Source: a bacterium
GTDB taxonomy: Bacteria > Bacteroidota > Ignavibacteria > UBA10030
NCBI GenBank assembly: GCA_043803945.1
Contig: JAZDJN010000087.1
Location: 128,001 to 192,000, forward strand
DNA length: 64,000 bases
Reading direction: 5' to 3'
The position numbers and the translations under genes are program-made. The notes under the pieces were generated by a model. That model was not told where the DNA came from. It saw only the letters and a list, made by a program, of their open reading frames with translations, and searched no databases. This document shows, piece by piece, positions 1,548-36,970 of this stretch; positions within the stretch are counted from its first letter, which is position 1, and every line of letters begins with the position of its first letter.

Positions 1548-1643
1548 GGGGATGAATGAGGACCTGGTGGCCTTCGCGGACTTCAAATCCGTTGTCCCGC
1601 CCCGAGAGGGGTGGGAGGTGGGTTCGATTCCTACCCGTCCCCG
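1548..1643 (+). tRNA. selC: tRNA-Sec (anticodon UCA)
   Basis: Acceptor stem GGGGATGA/CCGTCCCC with discriminator G; long D-stem with TGGT loop; anticodon arm GCGGA-CT TCA AA-TCCGT (TCA at 1583-1585); 9-bp variable arm TCCCGCCCC-GAGA-GGGGTGGGA; T arm GTGGG-TTCGATT-CCTAC; CCA not encoded. Confidence 0.95.
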
Positions 1644-6365: not shown

Positions 6366-6640
6366 ATGAAAACAAACGAACAACGTTATGTGGAGCCCTC
6401 TTGATCGCCACGGTGATGGTATCAACCAGTATGGTGTATTCTCAAACCGCCTTTTGGAAACAAATCAATGTGCCAGGCAGCAGTGATGTAAATGCTCTTG
6501 CGGTGAATTCCAAAATGGATTTACAAGTATGAATGTTACAGCGCTTGCAGTGAATAAGAGCGGTGTCTTATTGGCAGGGACATTTGCCACTAGGGTATTC
6601 CGTTCAATGGACAATGGTTTTACGAGTAAAGAATGGTCTT
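6366..6640 (+). pseudogene. Remnant of a secreted BNR/propeller gene (frameshifted and internally deleted)
   Basis: Signal-like KRTTLCGALLIATVMVSTSMVYSQTAFWKQ..VNALAVNS in one frame; NVTALAVNKSGVLLAGTFATRVFRSMDNG in another; no intact continuation. Confidence 0.55.
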
Positions 6641-6773
6641 CAGAATTATTCATCATACTTCATCTGTGACTATCAGTGCGTTTCTTGTGTTATCGGTGTT
6701 CTATTCTTGGTTTTTCGTATGTATAAAATTGCTATCTGAGTTACCAATAAACTTTAAGTATATAGAGGTGGAT

Positions 6774-16700: not shown

Positions 16701-18266
16701 ACCGCATCACCATCAACGCTGTATATGCGAGTGCCGGCTGGTGCATTCAGTGGACCGGTTACCGTGACCCAGTATGGATTGACTGCAAAATCCAGCACAC
16801 CATTTCAGATCCTTCTGCCGGGCAGTCATGGATTCGACTCCACCTCATTTAATTTTGCCGCCAACCTTACGGTGACGTATAACAATGTCAGTTATCCCTA
16901 TACTACGGAATCCATCAAAGTTGCCGATTTCAATTGCGATGGAAAGCTCGAAGTAATGGCTTCACTCACCACCACACAAACACACCAGCTCATCACCTGG
17001 CTCAATGCAGGTATAAAAGATTCACTCAAATTCTCTATAAGTGGAAGCGGGGGCATGGCCGGTATGATTTCCATTAATGATTATGATGGAGATGGAAGAT
17101 TAGATATTGCCACGGGGGGGCTTGATGTGTGTCAGAATATCTCGCAGGGGCAGGAATCGGTCTTTGGCTATGTTAGCTATTTGACAGGGAATGCTCCAAA
17201 GGGAGTTGCCTCTGGAGATTTTGACGACGATGGGAAACCCGATATCGCTACGGTTGATAATACCGCGAATATACTCTCCGTTTTTCGAAATACCAGCATC
17301 CCAGGCACTATCTCTTTCGAGAAGAAAATTGATTATGCCACGGGCAGTGGCCCTTACTGCGTCGCCGTGGGCGATCTTACCGGTGACGGGAAACTCGATA
17401 TTGCCGTGACAAACCGAATGGCGAGCACCGTCTCACTCTATCGTAATACAAGTTCATCAGGAACAATTTCCTTCGCCTCGAAAGTAGACCTTGCTGCAGG
17501 AACATCCCCATGGGGTGTTGAAATAGCTGACATCAACAATGATGGAATTCCCGATCTGGTCGTAGCATGCACCTCCGATCGAGTGGTAACCATTTACCGC
17601 AATCTTGGTTCAGGCAGTACATTCAGCTTTGCTCCCAGGGTATCTTTCACTGCCGGCACCAGCACCAGCGGTCCTTTGGGACTCTCTCTTGCTGACCTTG
17701 ACGGCGACGGAAAACTCGATATCGGTGTGGCAATCAGTATTTACAATGTCAAGATGTTTTCACTGTTTCGAAATATCAGTACATTATCAGAGATTAAATT
17801 CGAATCTCGTCTCGATTTTTCGATGTCGACCTCGATCAACGCTTACGAAATTGCACTGGCAGACGTTGACCTCGACGGCAAGGTCGATGTTCTCTATGGC
17901 GGGTACGGCACCGGAGGAATCTCAATTTTCAAGAACATGCTTCCAGTCGTTGTTGGTGTGGAACAGGAACAAACCGGTATGCCGGCTGAATTTCGACTCG
18001 AACAGAATTACCCGAACCCCTTTAATCCTGCGACCTTCATTCGTTATCAACTTCCGGCAGCGTCAAGGGTTTCCATTAAAATTTTTAATGTGCTCGGCCA
18101 GGAAGTGGCTACGCTTGTGAACGGGGAACAGGATGCCGGTTCATATTCCATACAATGGAATGCAACCGCACCAAGCGGAATCTACTTCTGCCAAATGAGA
18201 GCATGGCCTGCTACAGGACAGAGGTCGGGGTTTGTCAAAACAAACAAAATGGTTTTACTCCATTAA
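13767..18266 (+). CDS. Large secreted protein: 3 x (IPT/TIG + FG-GAP/VCBS propeller) with T9SS-type C-terminal domain
   Basis: PTITSFSP..G..VTI.G.NF TIG starts three times; many DLDGDGKLDI motifs; QNYPNPFNPAT tail. Confidence 0.92.
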   Translation: MRSLLRIFTFILTTAVTLAQVPTITSFSPRSGPMETMVTIQGTNFSTVPSENIVYFGGVRATVTSATSTSLGVAVPPGAMLAPVTVTVGGLTAASTLPFITTFAGSQSIDNSSFAPKADFSTQVPSEIVHTADLNSDGKLDIITSYNILRNTSSTALSFAAGVPHTLGLGAFGTDMAADDFDGDGKLDLWGYSQSSGFLYIARNTSSGDGISFTTPISILISSIRSLSIGDLDFDGKPDILVCAGITIGVYRNTSTKGSISFAPLTTISTWITSFPSSAVLSDLDNDGKNEVVVSSGDNSMVVFKNSSTPGNFSFPSPTTIPVNATGFRMTSADLDNDGTIDLMLERNNVISVLRNTTTPGSFSFAAPFTLQLNSTAVQNYDLGDLNGDGKIDLVIVNQNDVRIILNKSTSGNLSFSPVVNIELGVQLWPFGVAVGDFDNDGRSDIASANKYSMSTSVFRNVVTPPPQNVLTITSVSPLSGPIGTTVTITGSNFNVTPLNNVVYFGATRATVVTASSVSLTVTVPLGATHEPITLVTNGMMTHSASEFNVTFPSQNVIHTGAFFRNIDIPTAKKPIDMVVNDFDNNGKSDIALIGRADTMIQIFRNTSDYGTPPFTKHLELPAIRSGKGLTDFFIYSLCGGDVNSDGKLDLIAICYDTIVVYPNTSTAGSISFGTKVSFPAEGIQWGDAALGDLDADGKLDLAVIKTDATLSIMRNLSSGSTILFGSPSPVAAAVAHDIKVIDLDADGRPEIIVRGGETNIQVFRNTSTPGAISFASPLIFTTDLNATSLDIADINNDGKQDIVVACWGGFSVFLNSSSAGTLSLAPKQTITPAMGIEVQALAFSDIDGDGKPDMVVTWYSVQGYGSFFKVLKNTSSGSTVSFSSAVNFMTPDRCNPFFVADLDNDSKPDILIPNPAKNTFSLYWNTVWPPQISKPVIQSISPTTGQMGTKFTITGSGFDPTPTKNNVYFGGARAEILTASPSTLYMRVPAGAFSGPVTVTQYGLTAKSSTPFQILLPGSHGFDSTSFNFAANLTVTYNNVSYPYTTESIKVADFNCDGKLEVMASLTTTQTHQLITWLNAGIKDSLKFSISGSGGMAGMISINDYDGDGRLDIATGGLDVCQNISQGQESVFGYVSYLTGNAPKGVASGDFDDDGKPDIATVDNTANILSVFRNTSIPGTISFEKKIDYATGSGPYCVAVGDLTGDGKLDIAVTNRMASTVSLYRNTSSSGTISFASKVDLAAGTSPWGVEIADINNDGIPDLVVACTSDRVVTIYRNLGSGSTFSFAPRVSFTAGTSTSGPLGLSLADLDGDGKLDIGVAISIYNVKMFSLFRNISTLSEIKFESRLDFSMSTSINAYEIALADVDLDGKVDVLYGGYGTGGISIFKNMLPVVVGVEQEQTGMPAEFRLEQNYPNPFNPATFIRYQLPAASRVSIKIFNVLGQEVATLVNGEQDAGSYSIQWNATAPSGIYFCQMRAWPATGQRSGFVKTNKMVLLH

Positions 18267-19836: not shown

Positions 19837-19985
19837 TGTCATTCCGGCAATCTTCTAGCCGCCTGCCTGACGAAGTGTTCGTCACGCAGGCAGGGAATCC
19901 AGACAAAGGCTAAATCAATACACTGGACACCGGATTGAAGTTCCGCTGTACGGGATGCCGTAAAGCGGCACATTCCGGTGTGACG
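19837..19985. repeat. Nested REP-like palindromic element
   Basis: TGTCATTCCGG...GGAATCCAG...CTGGACACCGG...CATTCCGGTGTGAC, with an inserted CCTGCC-TGACGAA..TTCGTCA-CGCAGGCAGG hairpin; related copy near 49600-49686. Confidence 0.6.
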
Positions 19986-20051
19986 CGTCATTTCTTTTTA
20001 GACGACCCCAAATTGGCGTGCCATCGGTGGAGAATTTACTTAATTACAGCA

Positions 20052-20825
20052 ATGAACAGAACTCGCGCTATAGGATTGTTGCTCTTTCTTCTCTCCTGGT
20101 TCTTGCTGCAGCAGTGCGGCGAGGCTCCTCCGACAATTCCGGAACTGTTTACCGGATCGCTTAAAATAACGGCATCTGATCCGGCAATCAAATCTCTGGC
20201 AATCGACCTTGACGACATAAAGCTTGGTCTCTTTCCGAATCCGGCATTGGTATCAGATCTTACAATCGGCACTCATAAACTTCTGGTCACCGGAGACAAT
20301 AAGGCTTCATCAGTACTACTCGTAACCATCGCACGAAATCAGCAAACCAATATTGTTCTCGAATTGCTGGCCGAAGGTGCGTTTCTAGGACAGAAAGCTC
20401 CAGATTTTGCTGTGACGACTATCCTGAATGAGCGATTCTCCCTTGAGTCGCAGAAAGGCAAAGTGGTGCTTCTTGCCTTTTTTGAACATACCTGACTGGA
20501 GTGCATTCAGGCGGAGTTGCCGTCTGTGCAATGGGTTGTCGGAGCAGCATTCTCGCCCGAGCAGTTGACGATATTGGGCGTGAATACTACATCCTCAACT
20601 GAGTGGTTGTTGAATTATCGCACCCAGTCGGGTATCACATTCCCATTCGCGTACGATCAGAAGAGCGAATTGTTTACCAAGTACAAAATCGGCGGAACGT
20701 ATGGATACTATCCGCCGACGTATATCATCATCGATCAGAACGGTATTGTCCGGTACAGAATTGACAACACCTTTAAACGAGCAGTGGAAATGGCAACTTG
20801 CATAAAAGGATTACTCACAAACTAA
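20052..20825 (+). CDS. Lipoprotein with PEGA-like domain and TlpA/AhpC-TSA thioredoxin domain; selenoprotein with UxxC (257 aa, Sec148)
   Basis: ORFs 19935..20495 and 20517..20825 are in frame; KAPDF...KGKVVLLAFFEHT-TGA-LECIQAELP puts TGA at the first Cys of the CxxC. Confidence 0.9.
20502..20530 (+). promoter_or_regulatory. SECIS-like hairpin for TGA 20493
   Basis: TGCA-tt-CAGGCGG-AGTTG-CCGTCTG-TGCA; loop at +20 with G in position 2. Confidence 0.8.
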
Positions 20826-20851
20826 CCAAGGCAAACCTTGATGGAGGCGCT

Positions 20852-23161
20852 ATGAAAACGAAAGTGAGTATTATAATTCTGCTGATCCCGGTGATGATTG
20901 TGTCACAGAGCAAATCTTGGGAAGCGATGGGTCCAGAGGGGGGAAGAATTGCTGCGTTCGCCCAGGATCCTCAAAACGGCGCCATCTTGTACACAACAAC
21001 CTATGGATATCCCAGCAAAATCTTTAAGTCTTCAACTCACGGACAACAATGGAACGTGGTTGGATCGATCAACGATTATATCAGTGGATTTGCTATTGAT
21101 CCACGTATAAGCGCAATCATCTATGTGTTCTCCTCGAGCCGGCTCTATCGAAGCACAAATGGCGGGCAGATCTGGTCATCGATTCCGTTGCCGGCGAATT
21201 ATTACCTCTATGACATTTGCCTCGATCCGATAAAATCCAACACGATTCATGCAAGCGGCTATCATTACGTCTCCGGCACAACATACCAGTCGTACGTCGC
21301 TTATCTGAACAGCACGAACGCCGGTGCATCCTGGACAACAAACGATATTCTGCTGACGTTGAGCTACAATGAGGGATATGGGCGAGCCATCGCTGTCGAT
21401 AGTTCTGATAATCAAACAATCCTCATTGGGGGTTACGTCTATGTACTCTCTGGCAGTTTGTACAACGGATATGGCAAACTCCTTCGCAGCACAAACAGCG
21501 GCGTTAGTTTTTCCGACGTGACACCATCGGGTTCAGGGTATTTCTACGATGTTGCTATCGATCCGAAAAATTCCGGGAAGGCCTACGCAGCATCGTCGGG
21601 TGGTGTCTATCGAACAACAGACAAGGGATTAACCTGGCTGCGGAATAATGGTTTTGTGGGCATCTGTTACTATCTTTCCCTCGATAAGGCGAATCCCAAT
21701 AACCTTCTCGCTCAATCATACGGCCAACTCTACCGGAGCACTGACGCTGGAATCAACTGGCTTCAATCACTTACGACCGGGTCGGGGTATTCGGGGATCA
21801 TCATGGAGAACTCTCCATCGCAGTACATGTTTTATGCCAACGACGCCGGCATTTTCCAATCCAGCAACCGCGGCAACACCTGGGAACCCTGCAATCGCGG
21901 TATTACCTCTGCAAATATCACCTCACTGTATACTCCATCTTCCTCGATGCCAATCCTGTATGCAGGATTCCAATACAATACAGTATTCAAAACCACGGCT
22001 GCAACTAACCCGTCGGTATCGTGGCAGATGCTGGATCGATTTTACACATGCACCAATATCAACGCAATACTCTCATTGCCGGAAGATCCGAACAAGCTTT
22101 ATGCTCTGGAGGGCGGCGGCTGAGGTAACTCTGGGCTCTATATGAGCACAAACGGCGGCGCCGCTTGGAAACAACTCAACCAGACGCTTGATGAAGGATA
22201 CGCAGTTGTCACTGTCCCCGGAAGTGTTTTTACCGGAGGATGTCTTGTCGATAGTGCGCTTTCAAAGATGGCTGTTATCAAACTCACCATTGATGGTACG
22301 CTAACCAACACATCGATCCTGAGTTCTGAAGCCGGTGAGGTGAAGGCCATGGCTGTCCATCCCATAAATTCTTCTATCGTGTATGCGGGTGGAACCTATC
22401 GTGATATTTCATACTATAACTGCAGTCGATTATATAAAACGATAAATGGCGGAAGCAGTTGGTTTGAAATCGGTAAAACTAGTTTCAACATCAAAAACGA
22501 TGGAGTGTACGGTCTCTGTGTCGATCCATCGAATCCGGCTAAACTTCTTGCCGCAACAAACCTTGGTGTTCTTGTCAGTGAAAACGAGGGTACGACATGG
22601 AGCTCGGCAGCGCAGAAATTAAATTGCACCTCGCTTCTCCCCGACCCTTTAACGCCCAACCGGTATTTTCTCGGAACAAGAACCGGCGTCTATATCAGCA
22701 TTGATGGCGGGAAGTCCTGGCAGCAACTCGGGGGCCAATTAACTGCAACACCGGTTCTCTCGCTCGCTTATGATAAAATAGCAAAGGTCCTTTATGCCGG
22801 GACAGAAGGGCAGGGTGTTTACCGCTATAGCCTCTCGACAACAAATGTTGCTTCAGCACCCTTTGATGTGCCCGACGAATTTGCGCTGTACCAGAATTAT
22901 CCCAACCCGTTTAATCCATTGACAATAATCGATTTTCAATTGCCGATTACCACAATGGTGACACTTAGTGTTTTTGACCTTCTCGGCCGCGAGGTGGCAA
23001 TACTGGTGAATGAAGAAAAAACGGCGGGAAGGTACTCCGTTTCATGGAATGCATCGAACACTCCGAGCGGTATTTATTTTTACAGACTGTTGACCGGCGA
23101 CGCCAACCATGAACCAAGGGCAAGTCTCTGTCAGACAAAAAGAATGATCATCCTGAGATAA
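20852..23161 (+). CDS. Secreted BNR/Asp-box beta-propeller selenoprotein with T9SS-type tail (769 aa, Sec424)
   Basis: ORFs ending 22123 and starting 22142 are in frame: LYALEGGG-TGA-GNSGLYMSTNGG completes one blade; signal peptide only in the first half, QNYPNPFNP only in the second. Confidence 0.85.
22135..22167 (+). promoter_or_regulatory. Conserved double-hairpin candidate SECIS for TGA 22121
   Basis: GCTC-TATAT-GAGC then CAAACGGC-GGC-GCCGCTTG; same structure follows TGA 29121 and TGA 33188. Confidence 0.65.
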
Positions 23162-23211
23162 TTTTTCGAATCTACTGTCTCTTCAAGCAGGACTATTATC
23201 GGACGGAAAGT

Positions 23212-24084
23212 TTGAGTACCTTGCTTTTATCCTATCACTTTGCAGCGACAATGATCCTTGCCCCAATGACTCCCTTACTGGCACAGCGACTCTGTGCTGC
23301 ACTTCACTGCAGCCTCCCCACAAAAAAAATGGTCGACGATATTTATCGGGCTGCACCAGTAAAACTTGCACCGCAGCCTATCCCCCCCAGCGGTGCCATG
23401 ATAACGGTGCCCGTGTTTGCCGCTCATAATGATTCGGTGCGACAATAACGCTCTGCTTCATTATCACAATTTCCCCTGGGTGTTCTGATAGGCGGAACAA
23501 AGAAGGATGTAATTATCTCAAACAGAATTTATACCAACCTAAAAATAAATGTCCCCAAGCCGGTCGTGATTTATGGATGGCATAAGCTCGATGGAACACC
23601 GATACAACCCGTCTATAACGGCCACGAGCAGACCTACGCCGATTACAGCCATGGCATTCGCCTTGTGAAGGATACCGTGCTGGTTGATGGTATCCCGAGA
23701 TTTCTCTCTTCGGTGCTTGCTGATCCGGTGTATCATCTTCTCTTGAGCGACGAAGGAATCATTTCCATTCCCTATTACACTTTATCTACCCATGTATTAC
23801 CCGAAGAGGTTCCACCGCCCTATCAATTTCAACTCCATCAAAACTATCCAAATCCATTCAACCCAATTACAACAATCTGTTTTACTGTGTCATCTTCTGG
23901 TAAGTATCAGCTCAGGGTGTACACCTTAACAGGAAAGGAAGTTAGCGTACTTGAATATCAGGAGTTGTATGCGGGTAATCAGACGGTTCGGTATGATGCT
24001 CGTGATCTGCCCTCGGGAACATATTTCTACAAATTAGAGAGCAAGAACGGTGCACTCATCAGAAAAATGACGCTGGTGAAATGA
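23212..24084 (+). pseudogene. Disrupted secreted protein with T9SS-type tail (5' truncated, in-frame TAA at 23446)
   Basis: ORFs 23212..23448 and 23566..24084 share a frame and read as one domain across the TAA (..HNDSVRQ*RSASLSQFPLGVLIGGTKKD..IYGWH..IQP..H..YADYSHGIRLV); no signal peptide. Confidence 0.65.
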
Positions 24085-24417
24085 AAGATCCTGAGATGGG
24101 AGAGAGTTCCGCCAATCCGCCAAAAAGATGGCGGACAAGTCCACCCCCGACATTAAAGCGTTGAACTGCCGGTCATCCGCCTGAATAGACCTAATCGTTC
24201 GCTGCTCAGCGAAATCTGATAGAAAGCGAATGAACTTTCACGGCGAGATTACTCTCTCTTTCGTTGCCGAAAGATATGGTTCGGGTATTTATCATTACCA
24301 CATTTAAAAGGTGAGCAGCATTTTCACGCGCAGAGTATTTTTTTGAAAGACCATTTTCCCAAACCATGTGATGGTTGCCTTTCACCTGAAACTCGTGTAG
24401 CTTTAATTCACTGAGGG

Positions 24418-24452
24418 TTGAATCCCCCGCTGCTTGCGGCGGGGAGCTTCAT
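24418..24452. repeat. Short palindrome resembling an IS200/IS605-type end (no transposase nearby)
   Basis: TTGAATCCCCCGCTGC-TT-GCGGCGGGGAGCTTCA. Confidence 0.4.
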
Positions 24453-24500
24453 TTTTATCACTGTTCTTTTTTTATCATCTGCCTGAAAGCTCCTGCCGAT

Positions 24501-26933
24501 ATGCCAAGAATAATGCTGCTTGTTTTTCTCCTTGCTGCGTCTACACTCCAGGCTCAGGTGGCGCTGGATACTCTTTCTTCGTTCCCTGTGGCACCCGGTG
24601 TAATCCATACCACCATCGTTGCCCCGTCTGTTCCATGGACAATCAACCTGCTCCAGATCGACCTTACCAATCCCCTCATTAGCGTCAAAACGGTCAAAGC
24701 GAACGACCGCATGGCGGGTCTGGAACGAACAAGCTCCATGGCGGCACGGAATAGCCGCGAAGGTCACCTGGTTGCAGCCGCAGTTAATGGAGATGCTTAT
24801 GCGGCCGGTGGTATTCCCACCAACATGCAACTGGTCGACGGTGAGCCTGTTCACAAAGAGGTCGACAACGTCTGTATCGGGCTCGACCTGACCAAGAAAC
24901 CGATGATGAAGATGGTGAATTTCGACGGCGAAGTCCGGACCGCAAAGGAGGTCTATCATTTTTCCAGCATCAATCAGGCACGAGGATCCGATCAGCTTGT
25001 GCTCTTCAACCGCTTCTACGGAAACTCAACAGGTACCGATGCCAACGGTGCAGAGGCGCTTTTGACGCCTCTGTCGGAATGGTATGCCAATGGCCTCGTG
25101 GCATGCCGGGTCGATACAATTGTCAACGGCGCAGGGAACACGTCATTTCCCTCTTCAAAAGTTATCCTTTCAGGTCATGGCGCCGCTCGAACATTTCTAA
25201 CATCACGAATACAACAAGGTGACACGCTCCATCTCTTTCTCGGCCTGTCGCCCTCTCTAAAAAAAATGAAACAGATGATTGGGGGATTTTCTATCCTCGT
25301 GTCCGAGGGAAAAGTTAATACTACGCGTATCACGGTCCGTGAGCCGCGCACCATTGCAGGTTTCTCTGCCGACAGCACAAAACTCTATCTTGCGACCATC
25401 GATGGACGGTCGGCATCGAGTCTCGGGATGACTTACTTTGAGCTTGCCGATTTTATGCTCCAGATGGGGATGGCTTTCGGCATTAACCTGGACGGCGGCG
25501 GATCGACCACAATGGTCGTCCGGGATCAAATAACCAACCGCCCGTCAGACGGCCAGGAGCGAATGGTAGGCAATTCCATCGTCGTCGTTTCCACCGCGCC
25601 GAAAGGTCAGTTGACAAAGATTCAGATACTGCCGAATCGGGCAAAAGTTTTTATCGGAGATACGTTTCAGTTCTCGGCGCAGGGTGTTGATGAATATTTT
25701 AATCCGTATCAGCTCGATCCTTCCCTAATCACTTTTTCCGTTCATCCCTCCCTGGGAACGATATCCCCGACGGGACTTTTCAAACCGAGCGGGTTAAAAG
25801 AAAGCGGATTTGTCTACATCTCTTATGGATCGCTTATCGATTCCGCAGCAGTGTTGCTCCGAACGATCCGGCGAATAGCGATAACACCGAAATTTGCTGT
25901 CACCGATCTTTCCCGCCCAATTCCTTTTTCGCTGAATGGATTTGACGAGGACGGTATGGCACATAAACCCGGCCTTTATCAAATTCAATGGAGGCTCACG
26001 AATCCTTCGCTTGGACAGATTTCGCCGGAAGGCGTTTTTACTCCACAGGCCAGGGGAATCTCGCTTCTTATTGCCTCCATGAACAATACGGCAGCAGACA
26101 CAGCGCTGATCCGGGTGGAGACAGGAAGCGGAACGCTCGTGATCGATTCATTGGAATCGAGAGGGAACTGGAAAATCTCTATGTTGAATATCGAACAGGC
26201 CGCCGTGAGTATTGCTCCAACTGTCAGTTCATTAGGCCGGTTTTCTCTGCAAATCGATTATTCATACCGGTATGATTCAAGCGTCCCCTCGTACATCTAC
26301 ATCGATTCTTTGTTTTCGTTATACGGTGTACCGGATTCACTCTCGGTTGACTGCCGCGCCGATAGTGCACGGTACCGTCTCTATTTCATTGTCGAGGATG
26401 ACAACAGGGAATTATTCCGTTTCTTCGGGCATACATTTGCTGATCAGCCAAACATCTTCAAACAGATTCGGGCATCGACTGCTACTCCTCAGATGGTTGG
26501 CACCTCGGGAGTTTTCAATTTTCCTATCACGCTGAAACGTATCGAAATACAGTTGATGGGAACGGGAAAATTTTCAGGGACTCATTACAATGGTACGTTG
26601 TATCTGGATAATCTCACCGTTCATTATCCGGGAATTCCCACCGTTGCAGAACGGGAGATCTCTCCTCCTCGAACTTTTTCTCTTCTGCAAAACTTCCCCA
26701 ATCCCTTCAATCCGACAACGACCATCCGGTTTACGGTTCCTCACAATGGCCTATACCGCTTGACCGTTCATAACCTGCTGGGTCAGGAAGTGATTATGGT
26801 ACTGCACAAGACTCTTTCAGCAGGGTATTATTCGGTACTGTTCGATGCAGAGCAGTTAAGCTCGGGTATGTACGTTTACAAGCTCGAAGGGGGTGCGTTA
26901 ACCCTTACGAAGAAAATGCTGATCGTGAAGTAA
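24501..26933 (+). CDS. Secreted phosphodiester glycosidase (NAGPA-like) family protein with Ig-like domains and T9SS-type tail
   Basis: AAVNGD, EPRTIAG, IDGR, GINLDGGGSTTMVV, NRPSDGQER motifs; QNFPNPFNP. Confidence 0.88.
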   Translation: MPRIMLLVFLLAASTLQAQVALDTLSSFPVAPGVIHTTIVAPSVPWTINLLQIDLTNPLISVKTVKANDRMAGLERTSSMAARNSREGHLVAAAVNGDAYAAGGIPTNMQLVDGEPVHKEVDNVCIGLDLTKKPMMKMVNFDGEVRTAKEVYHFSSINQARGSDQLVLFNRFYGNSTGTDANGAEALLTPLSEWYANGLVACRVDTIVNGAGNTSFPSSKVILSGHGAARTFLTSRIQQGDTLHLFLGLSPSLKKMKQMIGGFSILVSEGKVNTTRITVREPRTIAGFSADSTKLYLATIDGRSASSLGMTYFELADFMLQMGMAFGINLDGGGSTTMVVRDQITNRPSDGQERMVGNSIVVVSTAPKGQLTKIQILPNRAKVFIGDTFQFSAQGVDEYFNPYQLDPSLITFSVHPSLGTISPTGLFKPSGLKESGFVYISYGSLIDSAAVLLRTIRRIAITPKFAVTDLSRPIPFSLNGFDEDGMAHKPGLYQIQWRLTNPSLGQISPEGVFTPQARGISLLIASMNNTAADTALIRVETGSGTLVIDSLESRGNWKISMLNIEQAAVSIAPTVSSLGRFSLQIDYSYRYDSSVPSYIYIDSLFSLYGVPDSLSVDCRADSARYRLYFIVEDDNRELFRFFGHTFADQPNIFKQIRASTATPQMVGTSGVFNFPITLKRIEIQLMGTGKFSGTHYNGTLYLDNLTVHYPGIPTVAEREISPPRTFSLLQNFPNPFNPTTTIRFTVPHNGLYRLTVHNLLGQEVIMVLHKTLSAGYYSVLFDAEQLSSGMYVYKLEGGALTLTKKMLIVK

Positions 26934-27007
26934 CGGATGATTCTTTTAGAGAAATTGGTTATCATTAGACCAGAGCTTAAGAAAGCGATTGCCAGAAAGA
27001 ATCCAGC

Positions 27008-27514
27008 ATGGTCCGTCCAAATATCAGAACTCTAGCAACCCTGTTTATTCTTTTCGTTGTACCATCGTTGATCTCCCATGCACAGGAAGGCCTCAAAGCA
27101 GGAATGAAAGCACCAGACTTCGAGCTCTCCGACATTAACGGAAACAAGGTTTCTCTCTCTTCCTTCCTCAATAAAAACATCGTCGTCATTCACTTCTGGA
27201 AATCGAAGTGAAGAGAATGCCAGGCGGAGTTTCCGTCTCTCATCGATCTGCAGGAAGAAATTAAAGAAGTAAAAGTCCTCTCCATCAACACCATTGACAT
27301 GGCGAGAAGGGTACAGTCCGATGCCAGAGCTTTCGGCCTCCCCTTCGATGTCCTTGTCGGCAGGGATTCGAACATCCTTACCGTTTACAAAGTCACAAAA
27401 CTCCCCCGGGTGCTTATTGTCGGAAAGAAGGGGACTGTTGTCTTCACCGAAAAGTTTGCCTCCTATGAAAAGCTCAAAGAAGAAGTTGAAAAAGCATTGA
27501 AGAAGGGATTATAG
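27008..27514 (+). CDS. Exported TlpA/AhpC-TSA thioredoxin-like selenoprotein with UxxC (168 aa, Sec68)
   Basis: ORFs 27008..27211 and 27299..27514 are in frame; KAPDFEL...VVIHFWKSK-TGA-RECQAEFP...LPR (cis-Pro loop). Confidence 0.9.
27222..27238 (+). promoter_or_regulatory. SECIS-like hairpin for TGA 27209
   Basis: AGGCGG-AGTTT-CCGTCT, nearly identical to the hairpin at 20509-20525; loop at +17. Confidence 0.8.
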
Positions 27515-27535
27515 CAATATCATACTCAGCCAATA

Positions 27536-27782
27536 AGTGCCACAAAGAAAAAAGAAAACTATAAAGAGTTCTTTCTTCGTGTAGCTTCGTGCCTCCTTCG
27601 TGCTCTTCGTGTAACGCTATTAAAAACTTTACACTAAGTGACACGAAGGAAAAGAGAAGACACAGAGGCGTAAAATAACGAGTGTTAATAATTGTCGTAA
27701 AGCAAGATAGAATAGAATCCATACATTAAGTCATCATAATCCTGTAAGTGTTTCACTTGGTGCCTTATAGACTTCGTGGCAC
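27536..27782. repeat. CTTCGTG/CACGAAG-type short repeat cluster
   Basis: cttcgtgtagcttcgtgcctccttcgtgctcttcgtg with complementary acacgaag; related motifs at about 1715-1850, 34770-34810 and 37940. Confidence 0.55.
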
Positions 27783-27815
27783 ATTTTTCGTCGAGAACTA
27801 AGTAAGGAGAATCAC

Positions 27816-29852
27816 ATGAATCTCATCACCAGAAGAATTTCAGGGTGCATCGTTTTGATGTTCCTGTTTTGCGGGCTCCTTTTCTGTCAGAAAGCTCAAT
27901 GGGAGTCTCTCGGTCCCGACGGCGGTATGATTCAAAGCCTCCTCAAAGATCCGGGTAATGGTAACATTCTTTACTGTGCCGCTCAGGGGAAACCATACCG
28001 CATCTTCCGCTCGACAGACGGAGGGAACCACTGGTCGCAGGTTTCGAAGATCGACGATCAAGTGCTCGCCTTTGGGAATCATCCCACAGTGAAATCGATG
28101 CTCTATGTGCTCGCCTACAAAGTGAGCACAGACAATACACGACCGACACGGGAGAACACACTCTACATCAGCACGGATGGCGGAACAAGCTGGCTGACTA
28201 AAGAGCTTCCGGAGCAGACATTTATTTCAAAGATTGCTCTTGATCCGGTAAGCCCGACAATTATCCACGCAATGGGATTGCTGCAGCCGGATTATAAGCG
28301 GGCATACTTTAAAAGCACGGATGAGGGAAAGAGCTGGACTCAAACCATCATTGCATCGGGGCGTGGTTCTGCAAGCGTCCTTGGAATCGATCCAAAGAAT
28401 CCCAACATCATCTATGTCGGCGGTTATACCCTGAATGATTCCAACAAACTCGTGCCCGCATTCTATAAGAGTGTCGATGGCGGAGCACATTTCGAGCAGA
28501 TGTCCCTGAAGATCACCACTCCCGCAGTTGCCATCATTTCAGATATTGCCATCGACCCCACGGCCTCCGGCAGGCTCTTCATTTCAATTTCCAATGCCGT
28601 CTATCGAAGCACCAACGGCGGCGAATCATGGGAAAAGAACAGCAGTACAATCCTCGCAGTGCAGCGGCTCTGGCTCGACCCGAATGATTCGAACCATCTC
28701 TTTGCCGCAACTTCTCCGGGGATTATCGAGAGCAAGGATGGCGGCGTAACGTGGAAATCGCTCACCGGCAAATATCCCGGCCGAACAACGAATGGTCTCA
28801 TGTTCAAGTCAAAGCCAATGCCCACGGTGCTTGTTACCAACTCCTCCGGTATCTGGCGAACGGTGGATGGAGGAAAAACATGGAAGTCAAGCCACAGTGG
28901 CATTCTCGGTACAACGGTCACGGCGTTAAGTATCGCCCCATCGTCACCGAACATTTTATATTCCGATGTAAAGTTCAATGCGCTCTATAAAACAACAGTC
29001 GCTGCAAAACCAACTGTTGTATGGAAACAGCTTCCGGTTTTCTATACGTGTACAGAGTTAAGCAGCCTGATGATCTCGGAGAAAGATCCCGATAAAATCA
29101 TCGCCCTCGAAGGCGGTGGCTGAGGAAACTCAGGGCTCTTTGTGAGCACAGACGGCGGCGCCGTTTGGAACGAACAGGATAAGACACTTGATGACGGATT
29201 TGCACTTGCATTGGGATCGGCCCTCTATCAGGCGGGCAGTTGGAAACCGGATCCGAAGAATACGCTGATTCGAATGGCGGTCTTTAAGAGTTCTGACAAG
29301 GGCGAAACCTGGCAGCATAAAACACTCAGCGACAGCGCAGGGGTGGTCAAGGCGCTGGTGGTTCACCCTACAAACAAGAACATTCTCTTTGCCGGCGGGA
29401 CAGTCTGGTGGAACCGGTTTATGAAAAACGCTGTCACTAAAAGCGTTCTCTACGCTACTCAGGACGCTGGAGAAACCTGGATAGAAATCGAAGGATTGAA
29501 CGGCAAGTCGGATTGTATTAACGGCCTTGTCTTTGAACCAGGCAATCCTAATCGACTGCTTGCTGCCATGAACAATGGTGTTGCCATCAGCGAAGATGGA
29601 GGAAAGATATGGAAGCTGCCATCGCAGCAGGTAGCGGCACTTTGTATTGTTGCCGACCAGCTTCAAAAAGGGCGCTTTTTCATTGGCGGCCCGAAGGGTG
29701 CCTGGAGGAGCGATGACGGCGGAATCACGTGGAAAGAACTCAATGAGGGCTTGACCATTCGCTCGATTCTCTGTCTGACATATGATTCGAAAAATTCGAT
29801 ACTGTATGCCGGCACTGAAAGCGGCGGCACAGTACGGTTGCACCTGAAATAA
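27816..29852 (+). CDS. Exported BNR beta-propeller selenoprotein (678 aa, Sec436)
   Basis: In-frame ORF pair; FYTC...IIALEGGG-TGA-GNSGLFVSTDGG; AAGGAG RBS and signal peptide. Confidence 0.85.
29135..29167 (+). promoter_or_regulatory. Double-hairpin candidate SECIS for TGA 29121
   Basis: GCTC-TTTGT-GAGC then CAGACGGC-GGC-GCCGTTTG (8 pairs). Confidence 0.7.
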
Positions 29853-30134
29853 CCCGATATGGTCGGGAGCAGACTTGTCCCGACGTTTTTGTCGGGAGCT
29901 CCCTCCCAGATACCGAACCGTTCTCTCCTTCCGGTGTTCATAGAGAAGGGAACGGTTCGTTTCGTACTATCGCTTTACAGTAATCAAGAGACTTCGTACA
30001 TTGTACTTGCCTGCCGGGAGAATGTGGGGAAGGTTCGGGCTGCGCGATGTGTAACGCACATCGCGCGATCATCAACACGTTCAGGACATCGTTCTCACAT
30101 GTTTATTCCACACAGCACAATCAGAGAGGTACAA

Positions 30135-31769
30135 ATGAAACCGTTCATTGTTGCTCTTGCTCTTCTTTTTGCGTTCTCCCTCCGCGCACAGGAAACGATC
30201 ATCACCGGCACACTGCTTGGTTATGACGGCAAACCGATGCAGATGACAAACATTCATCTTCAAAAACCGGGACAAAAACCAAAAGAAACTGTCCGGGCAG
30301 AGAAGGATGGTTCGTTCAAACTGATCGTTAAGGATACCGGCATTGTTCTTATCAAGTTTGCCGGACTCTTTCATCTGTCGGAAGATATTCCCTTTCTCAT
30401 CAAGCAACCGTCTACCATCAAGCTTTCGCTTCAGTTAGGGACATACCATTGCAATAAAAAACCACTAGACCCAAAGATTCTTGGAAGTTTTAATAATTGG
30501 AACTTATCGAAGCCTTTCGACCTGAAAGAAGAAAAGGATGGGACATATTCCGCGGAATTTGAAACAGCAGAAAAGGAATTTTCCTATCAGGTTCAGGGTT
30601 TTGAATCAACCGGTCGAACCGTTAACGGTACGCTTTCCGAACGGTATGAATACGACGGCGACGGTGATTATCGATCGATTGTGACACCAAAGGATGGAAA
30701 GATAAAAATTGTTTTTGATCCCTCTAAGGTTCTTGTCTCTTCCGCCCTGCCAAAACTCCAATTCGACGATCCCGGAAGCCGTGCGGCTCGCTATAGCACT
30801 TACCGCTTCGATGTCCTACGGTTGATACGGGAACGCTCATGGGCTCTCCTCGACTTTATTAACTCCGGAGGTGAGTCTAAAGACTTCAAGTTCGACAAGG
30901 ATTATTCGTCTGAGATGACCGCCTGCGCACAAGAAATAAAGAAGGAGAGTGATCCGCTGCTTCGTGATTTACTCTTTTTAAAATATTTTTACTACCCGCC
31001 TGAGAAAGGAGATATTGAAATTGCCAGACTCTACTTGAAGGTACTTCCCGACTTAATGAAACATCAACCTAGCGCGGGTGAGATCTCAGTTTTCTCTTCA
31101 CTTCTCTCGATCGGTAAAATGATGCAGTATAACGATGAATACATGAGCTCCTTTTTCGAGATCATTGATAATTCCAAAAGTGCAATTCTAAATTACAATT
31201 TGATCAATAATGTAATGAGAAATTTGAAGACACAGAACGATGCTGCGGCAGTAAAAGCATTCTACACGAAAGCGTTGGAAAAACTGGAAGGCACATCGTG
31301 GCTAAGGTCTTTCAAACAGCAATATGCTCCGAAAGCAGTAATTGCCGCAGGCGAAGCGGTTCCCTCTTTCTTAGTCAAGTCGCTGGAAGACAATACAAAA
31401 ATCTACACCAATCAAACAATGAAAGGCAAAGTGTACCTGGTACACTTCTGGGCGTCATGGTCCGAACCATCGTTGAAAGAGATGGAGAATCTTCACAAAA
31501 CGTATGAACAGTACAAAACAAAGAACTTTGAAATTCTCAGTCTCTCAGTTGATGCTTCACCGGAAGAGGGAACAGCGTTTCGTAAAAAGAAATGGGCGAT
31601 GCCCTGGCTCCATGCCTTTGCATCGACGGAGAAGAATTTGTTGGCCGACTTTGGGGTGCTTGCACCGCCAAAATTGATACTGATCGATACAAAGGGGATT
31701 GTCGTCGCAATGGACGCAGAGCTTCAGGGTGCAGCGTTGGGACAAACGCTTGCTCGTATTCTAAAATGA
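30135..31769 (+). CDS. Exported protein with C-terminal TlpA-like domain lacking both active-site cysteines
   Basis: GAGG RBS then MKPFIVAL signal; KGKVYLVHFWASWSEPSLKEM in place of WASWCxPC. Confidence 0.85.
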   Translation: MKPFIVALALLFAFSLRAQETIITGTLLGYDGKPMQMTNIHLQKPGQKPKETVRAEKDGSFKLIVKDTGIVLIKFAGLFHLSEDIPFLIKQPSTIKLSLQLGTYHCNKKPLDPKILGSFNNWNLSKPFDLKEEKDGTYSAEFETAEKEFSYQVQGFESTGRTVNGTLSERYEYDGDGDYRSIVTPKDGKIKIVFDPSKVLVSSALPKLQFDDPGSRAARYSTYRFDVLRLIRERSWALLDFINSGGESKDFKFDKDYSSEMTACAQEIKKESDPLLRDLLFLKYFYYPPEKGDIEIARLYLKVLPDLMKHQPSAGEISVFSSLLSIGKMMQYNDEYMSSFFEIIDNSKSAILNYNLINNVMRNLKTQNDAAAVKAFYTKALEKLEGTSWLRSFKQQYAPKAVIAAGEAVPSFLVKSLEDNTKIYTNQTMKGKVYLVHFWASWSEPSLKEMENLHKTYEQYKTKNFEILSLSVDASPEEGTAFRKKKWAMPWLHAFASTEKNLLADFGVLAPPKLILIDTKGIVVAMDAELQGAALGQTLARILK

Positions 31770-31840
31770 TTATTGATTAATGCTCTCTAGAGAATGATAT
31801 TGAACTTGTTATTCACTCACTACTATGTGGAGGTGACTCA

Positions 31841-33898
31841 ATGAACCTTAACTCACGTATGATCTTCCCGGCGATTGTGCTGCTTCTCCTTCTGCCGCTG
31901 CTGCTGGCCGGGCAAACCCGCCTGCCATTGAAGACCACTTCAAGCGGGCAGGGCGGAACGTGGGAGCCAATTGGACCTGAAGGAGGAAGTATGACTGCAC
32001 TCATTCAGGATCCGGGAAATGCACTGACGCTCTATGCTGCAGCCTCGGGAAATCCATGCCGAATCTACAAATCGGTCGACTTCGGCAAGAAATGGTCGCT
32101 TGTATCGATCATCGATAACAACATCCTTGGCCTCGGCTTCCACCCTCTCAAAAAATCGCTGCTCTACGCCTATTCAAGTACCTCCAATTACGATTCATCG
32201 GATCCGCTGGAGCAGTCCAAATTAAAAGCACCTCTGCTTTACACAAGTGCAGATGGCGGAAAGACATGGACATCAAAGGCCCTTCCTCCATTGTATTCCG
32301 TGTCGAAAATTCAATTCGATCCTGTGAATTCATCGACCATCCATGCACTTGCTTCTTCAACCGGGCTTGCGGGAAGTGTCTACCTCAAGAGCACCAATGA
32401 CGGCGAGACGTGGAATGTGACTGTGATTCTCAACGAACAGTCGTACGCTTCAGCAATGGATGTTGATCCTGATGATCCCAACCACATCATCATCGGAGCA
32501 TACAGTTACTCATTCACCACAACAACCAATGTCCTCTATGAAAGCACAGATGGCGGGAGCCATTTCTCTCCGATCACTTTGAAAAACAGATCGATCTCTC
32601 CTCCCAATGATATTATGTTCGGCCCCAAGGGCTCCAGGTTGGTATTCTTTTCGATGTATGGAGGAATCTATAAAAGTACCGACCGTGGAAAGAACTGGGA
32701 GAAGAACAAGGGAACCATCGATCTGGCACAACGGATATGGATGAATCCTACAAATGCAAATCACATGGTTGGGACACAGTATCGCGGCTTAATGCAAAGC
32801 GAAGATGGCGGCGTAACGTGGAAAACGGCTCCTGGAAAATTACTGGGTAATGTTTCCGACGGACTGATTGTCGGAGCGGGAACCAAGCCGGAAATTCTCA
32901 TCACCACTTCGGCAGGGATTTTCCGAACAGCGGATTATGGAAAGAGCTGGAAGGCAAGCCATAAGGGAATTGTTGCCACTCAGGTGATGTCGCTGCGTGT
33001 CGCGCCTTCGTCAACTTCTACACTGTTTGCTGCTCTGATGTCAAATGCTGTATATAAGACAAAAGCCGCTGCGGCTGGAACTGTCGGCTGGGAGCAGTTG
33101 CCGGTATTTTATACCTGTGTCAACATCAACGACATCCTCATCGACGAGAAGGACCCGAATAAAATTCTGGCCCTCGAAGGGGGCGGCTGAGGAAACTCAG
33201 GGCTCTTTATGAGCACAAGTGGCGGCGCCACTTGGAAAGAGATTGATAAAACGATGGACGATGGTTATGCACTGGCCCATGGTTCTTTCTATGCTGTGGG
33301 ATGTATGCTCGACGCAGCAACGCAGTCGAGAAAGATGGTTATCTATAAGAGTGTTGATGATGGAAAAACCTGGAAGAAGAATACGCTGGGCGACAAAGAA
33401 GGTTACCTGAAAGCCATTGCTGTGCATCCATCCGACAAGAACATTCTCCTTGCCGGCGGGCAATGCACGGTGCGCGATGGTATTCAGAGCAAGTTGTATA
33501 AAAGTACCAATGCCGGGGAAACCTGGAATGAGATACTTGCCATGGAAATTTCAAAGAACTCTATCACCGCGCTGCAGTATGATCCATTAAAGCCGGAGCG
33601 TGTACTCGCTGCAACACGAACCGGACTGTTCCTCAGCGAAGATGGGGCATCGTCATGGTCGAAGGCGAAGGAGAATATCGCTGTAACATCGTTGGTGGCC
33701 GATGCCAAAAAGCCCGGGCGCTTCTTTGCCGGAACACCAAAAGGTGTGCTGGCCAGCGAGGATGGCGGAAAATCCTGGAGCGAAATGAATAAGGGCTTGA
33801 CGGTAAAATCTGTGCTGTGCCTGGAGTTTGATTCAAAGAATTCTATTCTCTACGCAGGCACCAGCAATGGCGGCGTGATGAGGATGAATCTGAAGTAA
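31841..33898 (+). CDS. Exported BNR beta-propeller selenoprotein (685 aa, Sec450)
   Basis: In-frame ORF pair; FYTC...ILALEGGG-TGA-GNSGLFMSTSGG; GGAGGT RBS and signal peptide. Confidence 0.85.
33202..33234 (+). promoter_or_regulatory. Double-hairpin candidate SECIS for TGA 33188
   Basis: GCTC-TTTAT-GAGC then CAAGTGGC-GGC-GCCACTTG (8 Watson-Crick pairs). Confidence 0.7.
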
Positions 33899-34808: not shown

Positions 34809-35891
34809 ATGTTTATAAATCCCAAGTTTAAATATCCATTATCTAATCGACGTTCCCCTTTCGCAGTTTGGCGTGCTTGCCCGCCTGCCAATGTGATTTC
34901 TTTTCGACGGGCAGGGCGATTAGAAAATTCGCGAAGGCTTTTCATCGTAAGTAACAGATATGCCATTCGGATATTACTCATTCCTCTCATACTGTTCTCT
35001 CTCTCATTTCAGGGATGCGATTCAATAGCGGGCCGTTTCTTCTCACGCACAGTTGAACGCTTTGGCGAACCTACGCTCGCTATCTCCCACAAAAACTCAA
35101 ATCCAATTCTCTCCAATGTTGAGCTCGCTGTCCTGTGGATCGGACACTCAACCATGCTCATCCAGATACACGATAAAATTTTTCTCACCGATCCTGTCTT
35201 CACGCACACCATTGGCCTCATCTCGGGACGGCAGGTGGAACCCGGCCTCGATCCGGCTTCGCTGACAAAAGTTGATTATGTTTTGATCTCCCATCTCCAT
35301 TTCGACCACTTCAACTTTGGCAGCCTGGACATGCTTCCGAAGCAGGGGTGTCTGGTACTTCCGCCGGGCGGTGCAGCTTATTCACCGGAATTCCATTTTG
35401 CAGAAACGATCGAACTGGAGCAGTGGAAACCGTACGAAGCAGATGGTGTCCGTATCACCGCCGTTCCGGTAAAACACTTCAGCGGACGGTACGGGTTTGA
35501 TGCATGGTGGTCTGGAGACCGCGGTTACACCGGATATATAATCGAATACAAAGGCAAAACCGTTTTCATCGGCGGCGATACAGCGTATAACTCGACCTTG
35601 TTCAAAACGATCGGATCACGCTATACTATCGATCTCGCGTGTCTCCCAATCGCACCGATCGAACCGCGGCAATATATGCAGCGCTTCCACACCGATCCGA
35701 ATGAAGCAATTCGCGTGATGGAGGATCTGGGGGCAAAAGTGATGGTCCCTATACACCATCGCACACTCTTCCTCGGCCTCGAAGCGAAAGAAACATCCGC
35801 ACAGGAACTGCTTCAAACACTGATTCAGCAAAAACGGTATCAAAAGCGAATAAGGATCCTCGACATTGGAGAACAGATCATTCTTGAATAG
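34809..35891 (+). CDS. MBL-fold metallohydrolase (NAPE-PLD/UlaG-like), probable lipoprotein; true start uncertain
   Basis: WIGHST, TDPVF, SHLHFDH, GDTAY, PIHH motifs. Confidence 0.85.
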   Translation: MFINPKFKYPLSNRRSPFAVWRACPPANVISFRRAGRLENSRRLFIVSNRYAIRILLIPLILFSLSFQGCDSIAGRFFSRTVERFGEPTLAISHKNSNPILSNVELAVLWIGHSTMLIQIHDKIFLTDPVFTHTIGLISGRQVEPGLDPASLTKVDYVLISHLHFDHFNFGSLDMLPKQGCLVLPPGGAAYSPEFHFAETIELEQWKPYEADGVRITAVPVKHFSGRYGFDAWWSGDRGYTGYIIEYKGKTVFIGGDTAYNSTLFKTIGSRYTIDLACLPIAPIEPRQYMQRFHTDPNEAIRVMEDLGAKVMVPIHHRTLFLGLEAKETSAQELLQTLIQQKRYQKRIRILDIGEQIILE

Positions 35892-36831
35892 TAAGAGAGT
35901 TGTCGTACTTCCATCTTTCCTCCTGCTCATTTTGCTATTACTATCAGGCTGTGGGCCGCTCAACACAGGTTTAATGAGCCGCTTTCTGGATGGCATGTTC
36001 AACTCGGCTCAGATGGTCAAGCCAACGGTCACTCAACCAATTCTCCCGACGGTCGGCCTGTCTGCTCTCTGGATCGGGCACTCCAGTGTGCTGGTTCAGA
36101 TTGAGGACAAAGTGTTTCTCACCGACCCTGTCTTCTCCAATACCATTGGAATGCTGGCACCACGGGCATACAGCGCAGGCCTCGACCCGCGCTCCATCTC
36201 CAAGGTGGACGTTGTCCTGATCTCACACCTTCATATGGATCACTTTGCGTTTGGAAGCATCGATCAACTTCCAAAACATGGAATGCTCGTGCTGCCTCCG
36301 GGCGGTTCTGTGTACTCGCCTGATTTCGGTTTCAAAGAAACTGTTGAATTAAAGACATGGACTGTGTATGAACAGGATGGTATTCGCATTACAGCCGTGC
36401 CGGTCATGCATTTCAGCGGGCGATATGGATTCGATTCACAGTGGCAAAGCGAACCGGGGTATGGAGGCTACGTTGTAGAATATAAGGGTAGATCGTTCTT
36501 TTATCCCGGCGATACCGGCTACCGCCAAAATTTCTTTCAGGAAATCGGTGAGCGATTCAGAATTGATCTCGCAATTCTTCCGATCGGTCCAGCCGGATCT
36601 GCTGATCGGATTGCATCACGGATTCATGCGGGGCCGCTTGGCGCATTGGAAATTCTCAAGGAGGTCAAAGGAAAGTATATGATTCCGGTACACTATATGG
36701 CTTTCTTTCAGGGGTTTGAGGCAACGCCTACCCGACCAAGAGAGGTTCTTGATAAAACCGTGAAGGAGCGGGGCATGCAGGAGCGTGTCTTCATCCTGGA
36801 GATTGGAGAGCAAAAAATAATAATACCATAA
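35866..36831 (+). CDS. MBL-fold metallohydrolase, tandem paralog, lipoprotein
   Basis: LSGC lipobox; SHLHMDH, GDTGY, PVHY motifs. Confidence 0.88.
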   Translation: MENRSFLNSKRVVVLPSFLLLILLLLSGCGPLNTGLMSRFLDGMFNSAQMVKPTVTQPILPTVGLSALWIGHSSVLVQIEDKVFLTDPVFSNTIGMLAPRAYSAGLDPRSISKVDVVLISHLHMDHFAFGSIDQLPKHGMLVLPPGGSVYSPDFGFKETVELKTWTVYEQDGIRITAVPVMHFSGRYGFDSQWQSEPGYGGYVVEYKGRSFFYPGDTGYRQNFFQEIGERFRIDLAILPIGPAGSADRIASRIHAGPLGALEILKEVKGKYMIPVHYMAFFQGFEATPTRPREVLDKTVKERGMQERVFILEIGEQKIIIP

Positions 36832-36970
36832 TAAGCTGAAATGAAAGAGTAGAAAGGGACAAGAATACGTACACTATGCAGAGAATGCCCCGTAAGGGGC
36901 AGAATGTTTATAGCTTAACCAAATAACGATGAATGATCTCCGTTAGGAGCGAAATACTTAAAAGGAAAAT

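Follow-up and report, generated by a model that had tools for sequence, protein, structure and literature searches.

The DNA examined here (the window) comprises 64,000 nucleotides, positions 128,001 to 192,000 of the forward strand of contig JAZDJN010000087.1 in NCBI GenBank assembly GCA_043803945.1, from a bacterium placed by GTDB in the Ignavibacteria (Bacteroidota; UBA10030). It contains three paralogous BNR/Asp-box tandem-propeller genes, named W1, W2 and W3, each with one in-frame TGA and an open reading frame (ORF) that continues on both sides of it. Each TGA, taken as a putative codon for selenocysteine (Sec, U), is followed inside the coding sequence by two hairpins, H1 and H2, which are considered below as a candidate selenocysteine insertion sequence (SECIS). 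Coordinates are those of the window unless a contig or locus is named, and positions with a plus sign are counted from the nucleotide after the UGA.

Propeller genes and hairpins in the window

20798..23161, + strand: W1, propeller selenoprotein gene (read-through ORF with one TGA; Pfam Sortilin-Vps10 and Por_Secre_tail)
22121..22123, + strand: predicted Sec-UGA of W1, motif LEGGG-U-GNSG
22135..22147, + strand: H1 of W1, GCUC-UAUAU-GAGC (pattern match, RNAfold, alignment)
22149..22167, + strand: H2 of W1, CAAACGGC-GGC-GCCGCUUG, with one A.C mismatch (sequence, RNAfold, alignment)
27816..29852, + strand: W2, propeller selenoprotein gene (read-through ORF; Pfam; AF2 model)
29121..29123, + strand: predicted Sec-UGA of W2 (in-frame TGA)
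29135..29147, + strand: H1 of W2, GCUC-UUUGU-GAGC (pattern match, RNAfold)
29149..29167, + strand: H2 of W2, CAGACGGC-GGC-GCCGUUUG (sequence, RNAfold)
31841..33898, + strand: W3, propeller selenoprotein gene (read-through ORF; Pfam)
33188..33190, + strand: predicted Sec-UGA of W3 (in-frame TGA)
33202..33214, + strand: H1 of W3, GCUC-UUUAU-GAGC (pattern match, RNAfold)
33216..33234, + strand: H2 of W3, CAAGUGGC-GGC-GCCACUUG (sequence, RNAfold)

The read-through products of W1 to W3 are 678–787 residues long and match Pfam Sortilin-Vps10 with E = 1e-28 to 1e-42; PF15902 and PF02012 exceed their gathering scores, which places the proteins with the BNR/Asp-box, Sortilin-Vps10-type propellers. Identity to W1 is 36% for W2 and 38% for W3. 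The start codon of W1 is uncertain, and Pfam detects a type IX secretion system (T9SS) sorting tail in its product. Gene callers divide the propeller loci at the UGA, and the best-conserved stretch of the proteins is that at the Sec position, FYTC-(23 residues)-U-GNSGL[YF][MV]ST[NDS]GGA[AVT]W. The AF2 model of W2 has a mean pLDDT of 91.9 and no break at the Sec site, with pLDDT values of 93–97 near residue 436. Foldseek searches with this model returned GH74 structures as the top matches (E ~1e-25, TM 0.60–0.65, identity 14–19%), indicating a GH74-type tandem seven-bladed propeller fold. The likeness to GH74 xyloglucanases and to the Sortilin-Vps10 and BNR Asp-box tandem propellers is one of fold; unlike GH74, to which they are 14–19% identical, the W proteins conserve a Cys...(23 residues)...Sec pair. 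The strand topology of the AF2 model suggests that this Cys and the Sec residue are spatially close in the propeller. Among the papers listed in literature searches, none was on a bacterial selenoprotein with a BNR or beta-propeller fold, and these secreted GH74-like propeller selenoproteins apparently constitute a family undescribed so far.

The layout after each TGA is an 11-nt spacer, H1 (GCUC-N5-GAGC, 13 nt spanning +12 to +24), a single A, and H2 (8 bp spanning +26 to +44, with a GGC loop at +34). The original prediction had put both hairpins, with these arms and this loop, after the three TGAs, and the sequence and RNAfold agree with it. The pattern GCTC-N5-GAGC occurs three times in the window against 0.94 expected, and at least three matches were obtained in 8 of 100 shuffles. 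The minimum free energy (MFE) structure given by RNAfold for all three 55-nt stretches consists of H1, H2 and a GNRA-capped stem that contains the UGA (H0), with z-scores of −1.94, −2.99 and −4.23. The prediction had included H0 as well, and it is indeed found in the three window copies, but it is not conserved: of the 15 homologues described below, only four have it in their MFE fold (W1 has 3 bp of it in addition), its cells are paired at a rate of 64%, and it is absent from the RNAalifold structure, so that it was rejected as a part of the element. An alternative GAGC-tetraloop hairpin at +21, which forms in W2 only, was likewise rejected.

Across the three copies 36 of the 45 nt after the TGA are identical, the figure for the rest of the codon alignment being 623 of 1890 (33%), and the eight best of 633 sliding 15-codon windows of this alignment all lie at the Sec site. 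Conservation of these 45 nt at synonymous sites, as originally claimed, holds from +12 on; the 11-nt spacer varies at such sites (GGT/GGA/GGA, TCT/TCA/TCA). A covariance model of the element matched the three W sites alone in the 5.5-Mb genome, and Rfam gave no match at the three sites, either at the gathering score or at E up to 5.

Conservation of the hairpins in homologous genes

Twelve further TGA-containing homologues were found beyond W1–W3, and the resulting set of 15 sequences comes from this genome (G000, three copies), G427 (two), G573 (four), G576, G631, G627, G258 and two metagenome contigs. When species-representative genomes were scanned by pattern, one close relative came up, the locus L031 of a metagenome-assembled genome; the other 79 of the 80 loci listed were generic Asp-box proteins found via a second peptide pattern. 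Scanning of metagenomes added L111 and L112. A six-frame search of a phylum sample detected a TGA-containing orthologue in 1 of 400 other genomes (G258), while G018 of the same sample gave a C-terminal match only, with no stop codon. An order sample centred on G427, the genome of L031, proved richer, with TGA-containing homologues in 7 of 276 genomes (10 loci, including the second copy of G427, the four copies of G573, and those of G576, G631 and G627) and stop-free matches in five more; a first sample of 40 family- or order-level relatives held no orthologue at E<=1e-30. The N-terminal parts of L031 (1672..2256) and L111 (upstream of ~1931) are out of frame and contain several in-frame TGAs; these frame breaks are probably assembly indels, and only the in-frame parts of both loci were used.

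The 15 homologues have a median pairwise protein identity of 36% (maximum 69%). The TGA falls in the same aligned column in all of them, and the succession of spacer, H1, single A and H2 is retained without an indel in 15/15. Judged from this comparison, H1 and H2 are conserved and under RNA-level selection at all 15 homologous Sec sites. The synonymous-site pattern is the most telling evidence for such selection. Codons +1 to +15 include five degenerate columns with an invariant amino acid, three of which are also codon-invariant (CTC, AGC and GGC, each 15/15), as against 0 of 19 such columns outside the element (Fisher p=0.005); a version of the test with seven sequences gave 4/6 versus 0/47 (p=5e-5). 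The stem codon ACA is used in 14 of the 15 sequences, and the Gly codon in the H2 loop occurs in all four forms.

The base pairs themselves vary in a compensatory manner, and the covariation originally claimed for H2 on the three copies is borne out in the larger alignment. At pair 4 of H2 the 15 sequences have GC (10), CG (3), AU (1) and A.C (1), and at pair 5 UA (12) and CG (3); pairs 2 and 3 include one G.U each. The closing pair is C-G in nine sequences and C.U in six, where it opens into a CGGGU loop. Pairing extends to 94% of all H2 cells. In H1, four pairs are invariant, and the fifth is UA in five sequences, CG in one and unpaired in nine. Over the complete structure the paired share of cells is 84%, compared with 48% at most when the alignment is read in six slid registers, and RNAalifold applied to the 15 sequences returned exactly H1 and H2. 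The compensatory changes in H2 are non-synonymous swaps between reverse-complement codons (AGU/ACU, ACU/AGU, AGC/GCU and GAC/GUU). In the homologue of G258 (L114), the peptide encoded over H1 has changed from GL[FY][MV]S to ALLRS, and the H1 stem is retained and lengthened.

The hairpins are no by-product of Asp-box coding. Among 74 S..GG..W motifs in the genome, seven or more of the eight pairs are formed only at the three Sec sites and at one unrelated box. None of the 15 Sec-adjacent Asp-boxes has the canonical D...T, the two positions being occupied instead by S/T, T/S, S/A, D/V or N/A; elsewhere in these proteins, out of 56 further Asp-box-like motifs, the commonest combinations are D/T (22) and D/S (13). 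A D...T at the Sec-adjacent box would break pairs 4 and 5 of H2.

The sole homologue that spans the site without a stop codon, L131 (G571:C15), has neither the Cys (FYTC is replaced by FLTA) nor the Sec residue (replaced by Gly), its Asp-box is back to the canonical D, and the hairpins are missing, with two of four H1 pairs and five of eight H2 pairs. The joint loss of Cys and Sec fits a Cys–Sec redox pair. Six database proteins of 412–474 residues (P0008, P0012, P0017, P0028, P0061 and P0085) stop right before the homologous position, ending in ...LAGG, ...MVGG, ...IEGDG or ...MASG directly after an FYRC-type motif. From their sequences these are presumably shortened calls of further Sec-propeller genes belonging to another, more distant clade; a search of 400 genomes with P0017 as the query gave no loci beyond those already in the set.

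Spacing of the element and possible role of H1

The consensus for bacterial SECIS (bSECIS) elements in the bSECISearch model of Zhang and Gladyshev, in the form restated in a 2026 review (PMC13188914), comprises a loop of 3–9 nt on an upper stem of 4–16 bp, one G or more among loop positions 1 and 2 (mostly G[G|U]N), a distance of 16–37 nt from the UGA to the apical loop, and an MFE of −7.5 kcal/mol or lower; as presented there, the model is a single stem-loop and is silent on structure in the spacer. The propeller hairpins lie just downstream of an in-frame Sec-UGA and inside the coding region. In nine of the 15 sequences H2 consists of 8 bp with a 3-nt loop, in the other six of 7 bp with a 5-nt loop; all 15 loops read GGC, GGU, GGA or CGGGU, the spacing being 33 nt where the loop is GGN and 32 nt where it is CGGGU. 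The MFE of H2 alone is −9.1 to −12.3 kcal/mol in 14 of the 15 and −7.1 in W1, that of the whole stretch from +1 to +45 is −12.8 to −19.5 kcal/mol in 15/15, and these energies were rated as agreeing with the consensus. H2 alone thus fits all four features, the 16–37 nt spacing included, and by that model is a SECIS with a spacing at the long end and no new class; the "second SECIS architecture" of the original prediction is not required. Compared with the consensus, H2 is alike in position, loop, stem (7–8 bp) and spacing (32–33 nt), whereas the propeller element adds a strictly conserved 13-nt hairpin in the spacer, starting where the other SECIS stems of the host start.

The minimal SECIS of E. 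coli fdhF, as portrayed in PMC8659212, is a 17-nt stem-loop located 11 nt from the UGA, with a bulged U17 and with G23 and U24 in the loop. The propeller element has the same 11-nt spacer before its first hairpin, and its genome encodes SelB-type machinery; in contrast to fdhF, H1 lacks the GU loop motif (there is no G at loop positions 1–2) and has no bulge, and so no bulged U, and the G-rich loop stands on the next hairpin. Among the 10 best-ranked of 135 papers matched in a literature search, none dealt with a bSECIS that has a double, tandem or second hairpin. The propeller element is best described as a consensus-type SECIS hairpin formed from Asp-box codons plus a conserved spacer hairpin.

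Six other Sec sites are predicted in this genome, four of them in the window and two elsewhere, with loops at +17 to +21 and stems that begin at +11 to +14. Those in the window are:

20493..20526, + strand: Sec-UGA of the ResA/TlpA-like AhpC/TSA gene 19935..20825 (U-LEC), single 7-bp hairpin, loop AGUUG from +20
27209..27238, + strand: Sec-UGA of the ResA/TlpA-like gene 27008..27514 (U-REC), single 7-bp hairpin, loop GUU from +18
41091..41122, + strand: Sec-UGA of the membrane protein gene 40968..42464 (C-AGGG-U-G), loop GGUCU at +19, the RGUCU-loop hairpin being assigned by analogy with 42606 (the RNAfold MFE structure here is a competing hairpin)
42606..42636, + strand: Sec-UGA of the paralogous membrane protein gene 42477..43967, 6-bp hairpin, loop GUC at +20

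Five single-hairpin sites with loops at +17 to +20 had been expected from the sequence; the four above have such loops, and the fifth was not identified. In five other genomes, the ResA-like Sec genes that adjoin propeller genes have their loop at +18 in 6/6 orthologues. The single-hairpin SECIS elements of the host and its relatives resemble H2 in their 6–8 bp stems and G[G/U]N loops and presumably serve the same SelB, but their loops lie at +17 to +21, not +34, and there is no hairpin in the spacer. The spacing of the propeller element is 13–17 nt longer than that of every other Sec site examined in these genomes, and set against the +17 to +21 of 12 comparator sites, the difference of the H2 loop at +34 equals the 13-nt length of H1. 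With loops at about +18 and +34 in adjacent genes, one SelB per genome would read both. SelB is described in PMC5311926 as tethered to the SECIS via its domain 4 during delivery of the tRNA, and so the geometry should matter.

On balance we lean towards reading the 45 nt after the UGA as a two-part bacterial SECIS within the coding sequence, in which SelB would bind H2 and H1 would act as a distance-compensating side arm. H2, with its G+C-rich stem of 7–8 bp and its GGN (or CGGGU) loop, would be built from the Asp-box codons that follow Sec, and its G-rich loop is the likely target of SelB. H1, of 4–5 bp and 13 nt, would start 11 nt after the UGA in the manner of the other SECIS stems of the host and be joined to H2 by the single A. 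With H1 folded, the base of H2 would lie ~12–13 nt from the UGA (effectively ~+13), which would bring the H2 loop to the same spatial distance as the single-hairpin loops at +17 to +21 of the same genome. That H1 shortens the effective distance between UGA and loop is plausible from the geometry and the nucleotide counts, and the numbers fit well. A stronger version, in which the hairpin that binds SelB was recruited from Asp-box codons 26 nt downstream of the UGA, the 13-nt adaptor is obligatory and folds the surplus spacer away, SelB gauges distance in space and not in nucleotides, and the D...T of the Asp-box is overwritten by the RNA, is put forward tentatively, at somewhat short of an even chance.

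Several observations weigh against this two-part reading. The covariation score of the alignment was reached by 0 of 500 column shuffles, a control that related sequences without structure can exceed, and the sequences here are related; independent compensatory events are few. The four core pairs of H1 are invariant and thus yield no covariation, so that the support for H1 comes from synonymous-site invariance, the fifth pair and the one lineage with altered amino acids. In a 138-nt context, the predicted probability of H2 is below 0.6 in 4 of the 15 sequences (0.03 in W1), and it is at least 0.9 in 12 of the 15 when the 5' part is masked in the way a ribosome would cover it. The other Sec sites in the spacing comparison were drawn from a genome scan that required a hairpin, which atypical sites may escape. 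Finally, H2 by itself lies within the consensus spacing of 16–37 nt, and H1 may therefore be dispensable for spacing.

The last point leads to an alternative that we regard as unlikely, although it is the most serious of those considered, in which H2 is an ordinary long-spacing bSECIS that works alone, as its unaided fit to all four consensus features would allow, and H1 is selected for some RNA role other than distance. H1 could, for example, prevent the G-rich codons upstream from pairing wrongly with H2, or make the ribosome pause at the entrance of its channel. When the H1 sequence is shuffled in silico, the mean predicted probability of H2 falls in 11 of the 15 sequences (for instance from 0.95 to 0.52 in L114 and from 0.90 to 0.56 in L138), as a protective role would have it, but the effect is inconsistent, with the probability of H2 the same or higher in the remaining 4/15. 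A lone H2 also leaves unexplained why H1 has a constant length of 13 nt, a start at +12 and a one-nucleotide link to H2, and why this length coincides with the distance by which H2 is offset from the loops (+17 to +21) of all 12 comparator sites.

It is very improbable that H1, whose stem from +12 and loop at +16 to +20 occupy the canonical position, is instead the SelB-bound hairpin, with H2 as an accessory stabiliser or roadblock. The position and the 5-nt loop of H1 do match the other sites of the genome, and its offset matches the 11 nt given for the E. coli minimal SECIS in PMC8659212. However, the H1 loops are UAUAU, UUUGU, UUUAU, UUCAU, UUCGU, UCA and AUA, with a G at either of their two leading positions in 0/15, whereas G[G/U] opens the loop at all the other Sec sites of the genome; lacking this common G, H1 is an unlikely site for SelB. 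In addition, H1 alone reaches only −5.5 to −7.3 kcal/mol, and the GGN loop and most of the covariation are on H2.

An absence of any RNA function, with the pattern arising from constraint on the protein, from biased codon use or from gene conversion between the three paralogous copies, is barely credible. The peptide around Sec is the most conserved part of the protein, as such a constraint would predict, but the codon-invariant columns occur in the stems only and in none of the 19 columns elsewhere, the loop Gly uses four codons, non-synonymous changes are compensatory, and the Asp-box controls disagree. Local gene conversion is excluded by the 12 homologues of other genomes, which share the structure at a median protein identity of 36%. 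That the TGAs are true stops separating two genes at each locus can be dismissed almost outright: it would account for the splitting of the loci by gene callers and for the six database proteins that end exactly before the homologous position, but it is contradicted by the TGA in the same aligned column in 15/15 with conserved one-frame flanks, by an AF2 read-through model that forms one continuous tandem propeller, by the tRNA-Sec and SelB genes on the same contig, and by the joint loss of Cys and Sec in L131.

The tolerance of SelB for the distance between UGA and SECIS is known by experiment mainly in E. coli. With the two-part element, this locus would be an example from nature, backed by phylogeny, of a single SelB that handles two geometries, with loops at +18 and +34, in adjacent genes. 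The exact match of a small conserved hairpin to the difference in spacing opens a spacing rule to direct testing. The locus also appears to be one in which RNA structure dictates the choice of amino acids within a well-known protein motif, the Asp-box.

Selenocysteine machinery, further selenoprotein genes and neighbourhood

The machinery for Sec incorporation is encoded on the same contig:

1548..1642, + strand: tRNA-Sec gene (Rfam RF01852, 62.9 bits)
C87:117744-119609: SelB gene (above the TIGR00475 cut-off; same contig, ~8 kb upstream of the window)

The propeller genes are coupled to a second selenoprotein in six genomes. A Sec-containing ResA/TlpA-like oxidoreductase gene (HFWKSK-U-RECQAEFPS) adjoins a Sec-propeller gene in G000, G427 (twice), G573, G576, G627 and G631; the pairs in the window are 19935..20825 with 20798..23161 (W1) and 27008..27514 with 27816..29852 (W2), and those elsewhere are L142–L147. 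This conserved gene pair suggests a redox partnership of the ResA-like oxidoreductase and the propeller. Between W2 and W3, ORF 29859..31769, which contains no TGA, encodes a protein of 636 residues whose C-terminal domain is of the redoxin/AhpC-TSA type.

Of the two Sec sites outside the window, one (C85:24187 of G000; L119, 1346..2371) is an in-frame TGA in the motif EGG-U-C of an FG-GAP repeat protein; the hairpin after it has 8 bp and a GGU loop at +21. From its sequence, the product seems to be a propeller-type selenoprotein of a second kind in this genome. The other (C91:26272, minus strand, of G000; L120, 1101..2423) lies in the U-GFC active site of a protein with thioredoxin-like and TPR regions, and its 7-bp hairpin has a GGU loop at +19. 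Both hairpins have the same design of stem and GGU loop as H2. The membrane paralogues 40968..42464 and 42477..43967 have an N-terminal C-x-GGG-U-G motif, the GGG-U-G of which is similar to the propeller motif, and matched no Pfam or NCBIfam family. Further TGAs at 34752, 39851, 24082, 31767, 58114, 18613, 13704/13734 and 49312/49324 were considered as Sec sites and found unsupported; for example, the metallo-beta-lactamase (MBL)-fold gene at 34590 has an upstream extension that appears to be non-coding.

The surroundings of the cluster are rich in genes for secreted repeat and propeller proteins, several with T9SS sorting tails. These include 6633..8840, 11194..13656, 13767..18266 and 24501..26933, the types represented being PSII_BNR, PQQ-like, a 1499-residue FG-GAP/TIG protein and an NAGPA phosphodiester glycosidase. 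Downstream of the propeller cluster, the region 34809..37927 contains two MBL-fold (Lactamase_B_2) ORFs and an ORF of the class-A-type Beta-lactamase2 family (36971..37927).

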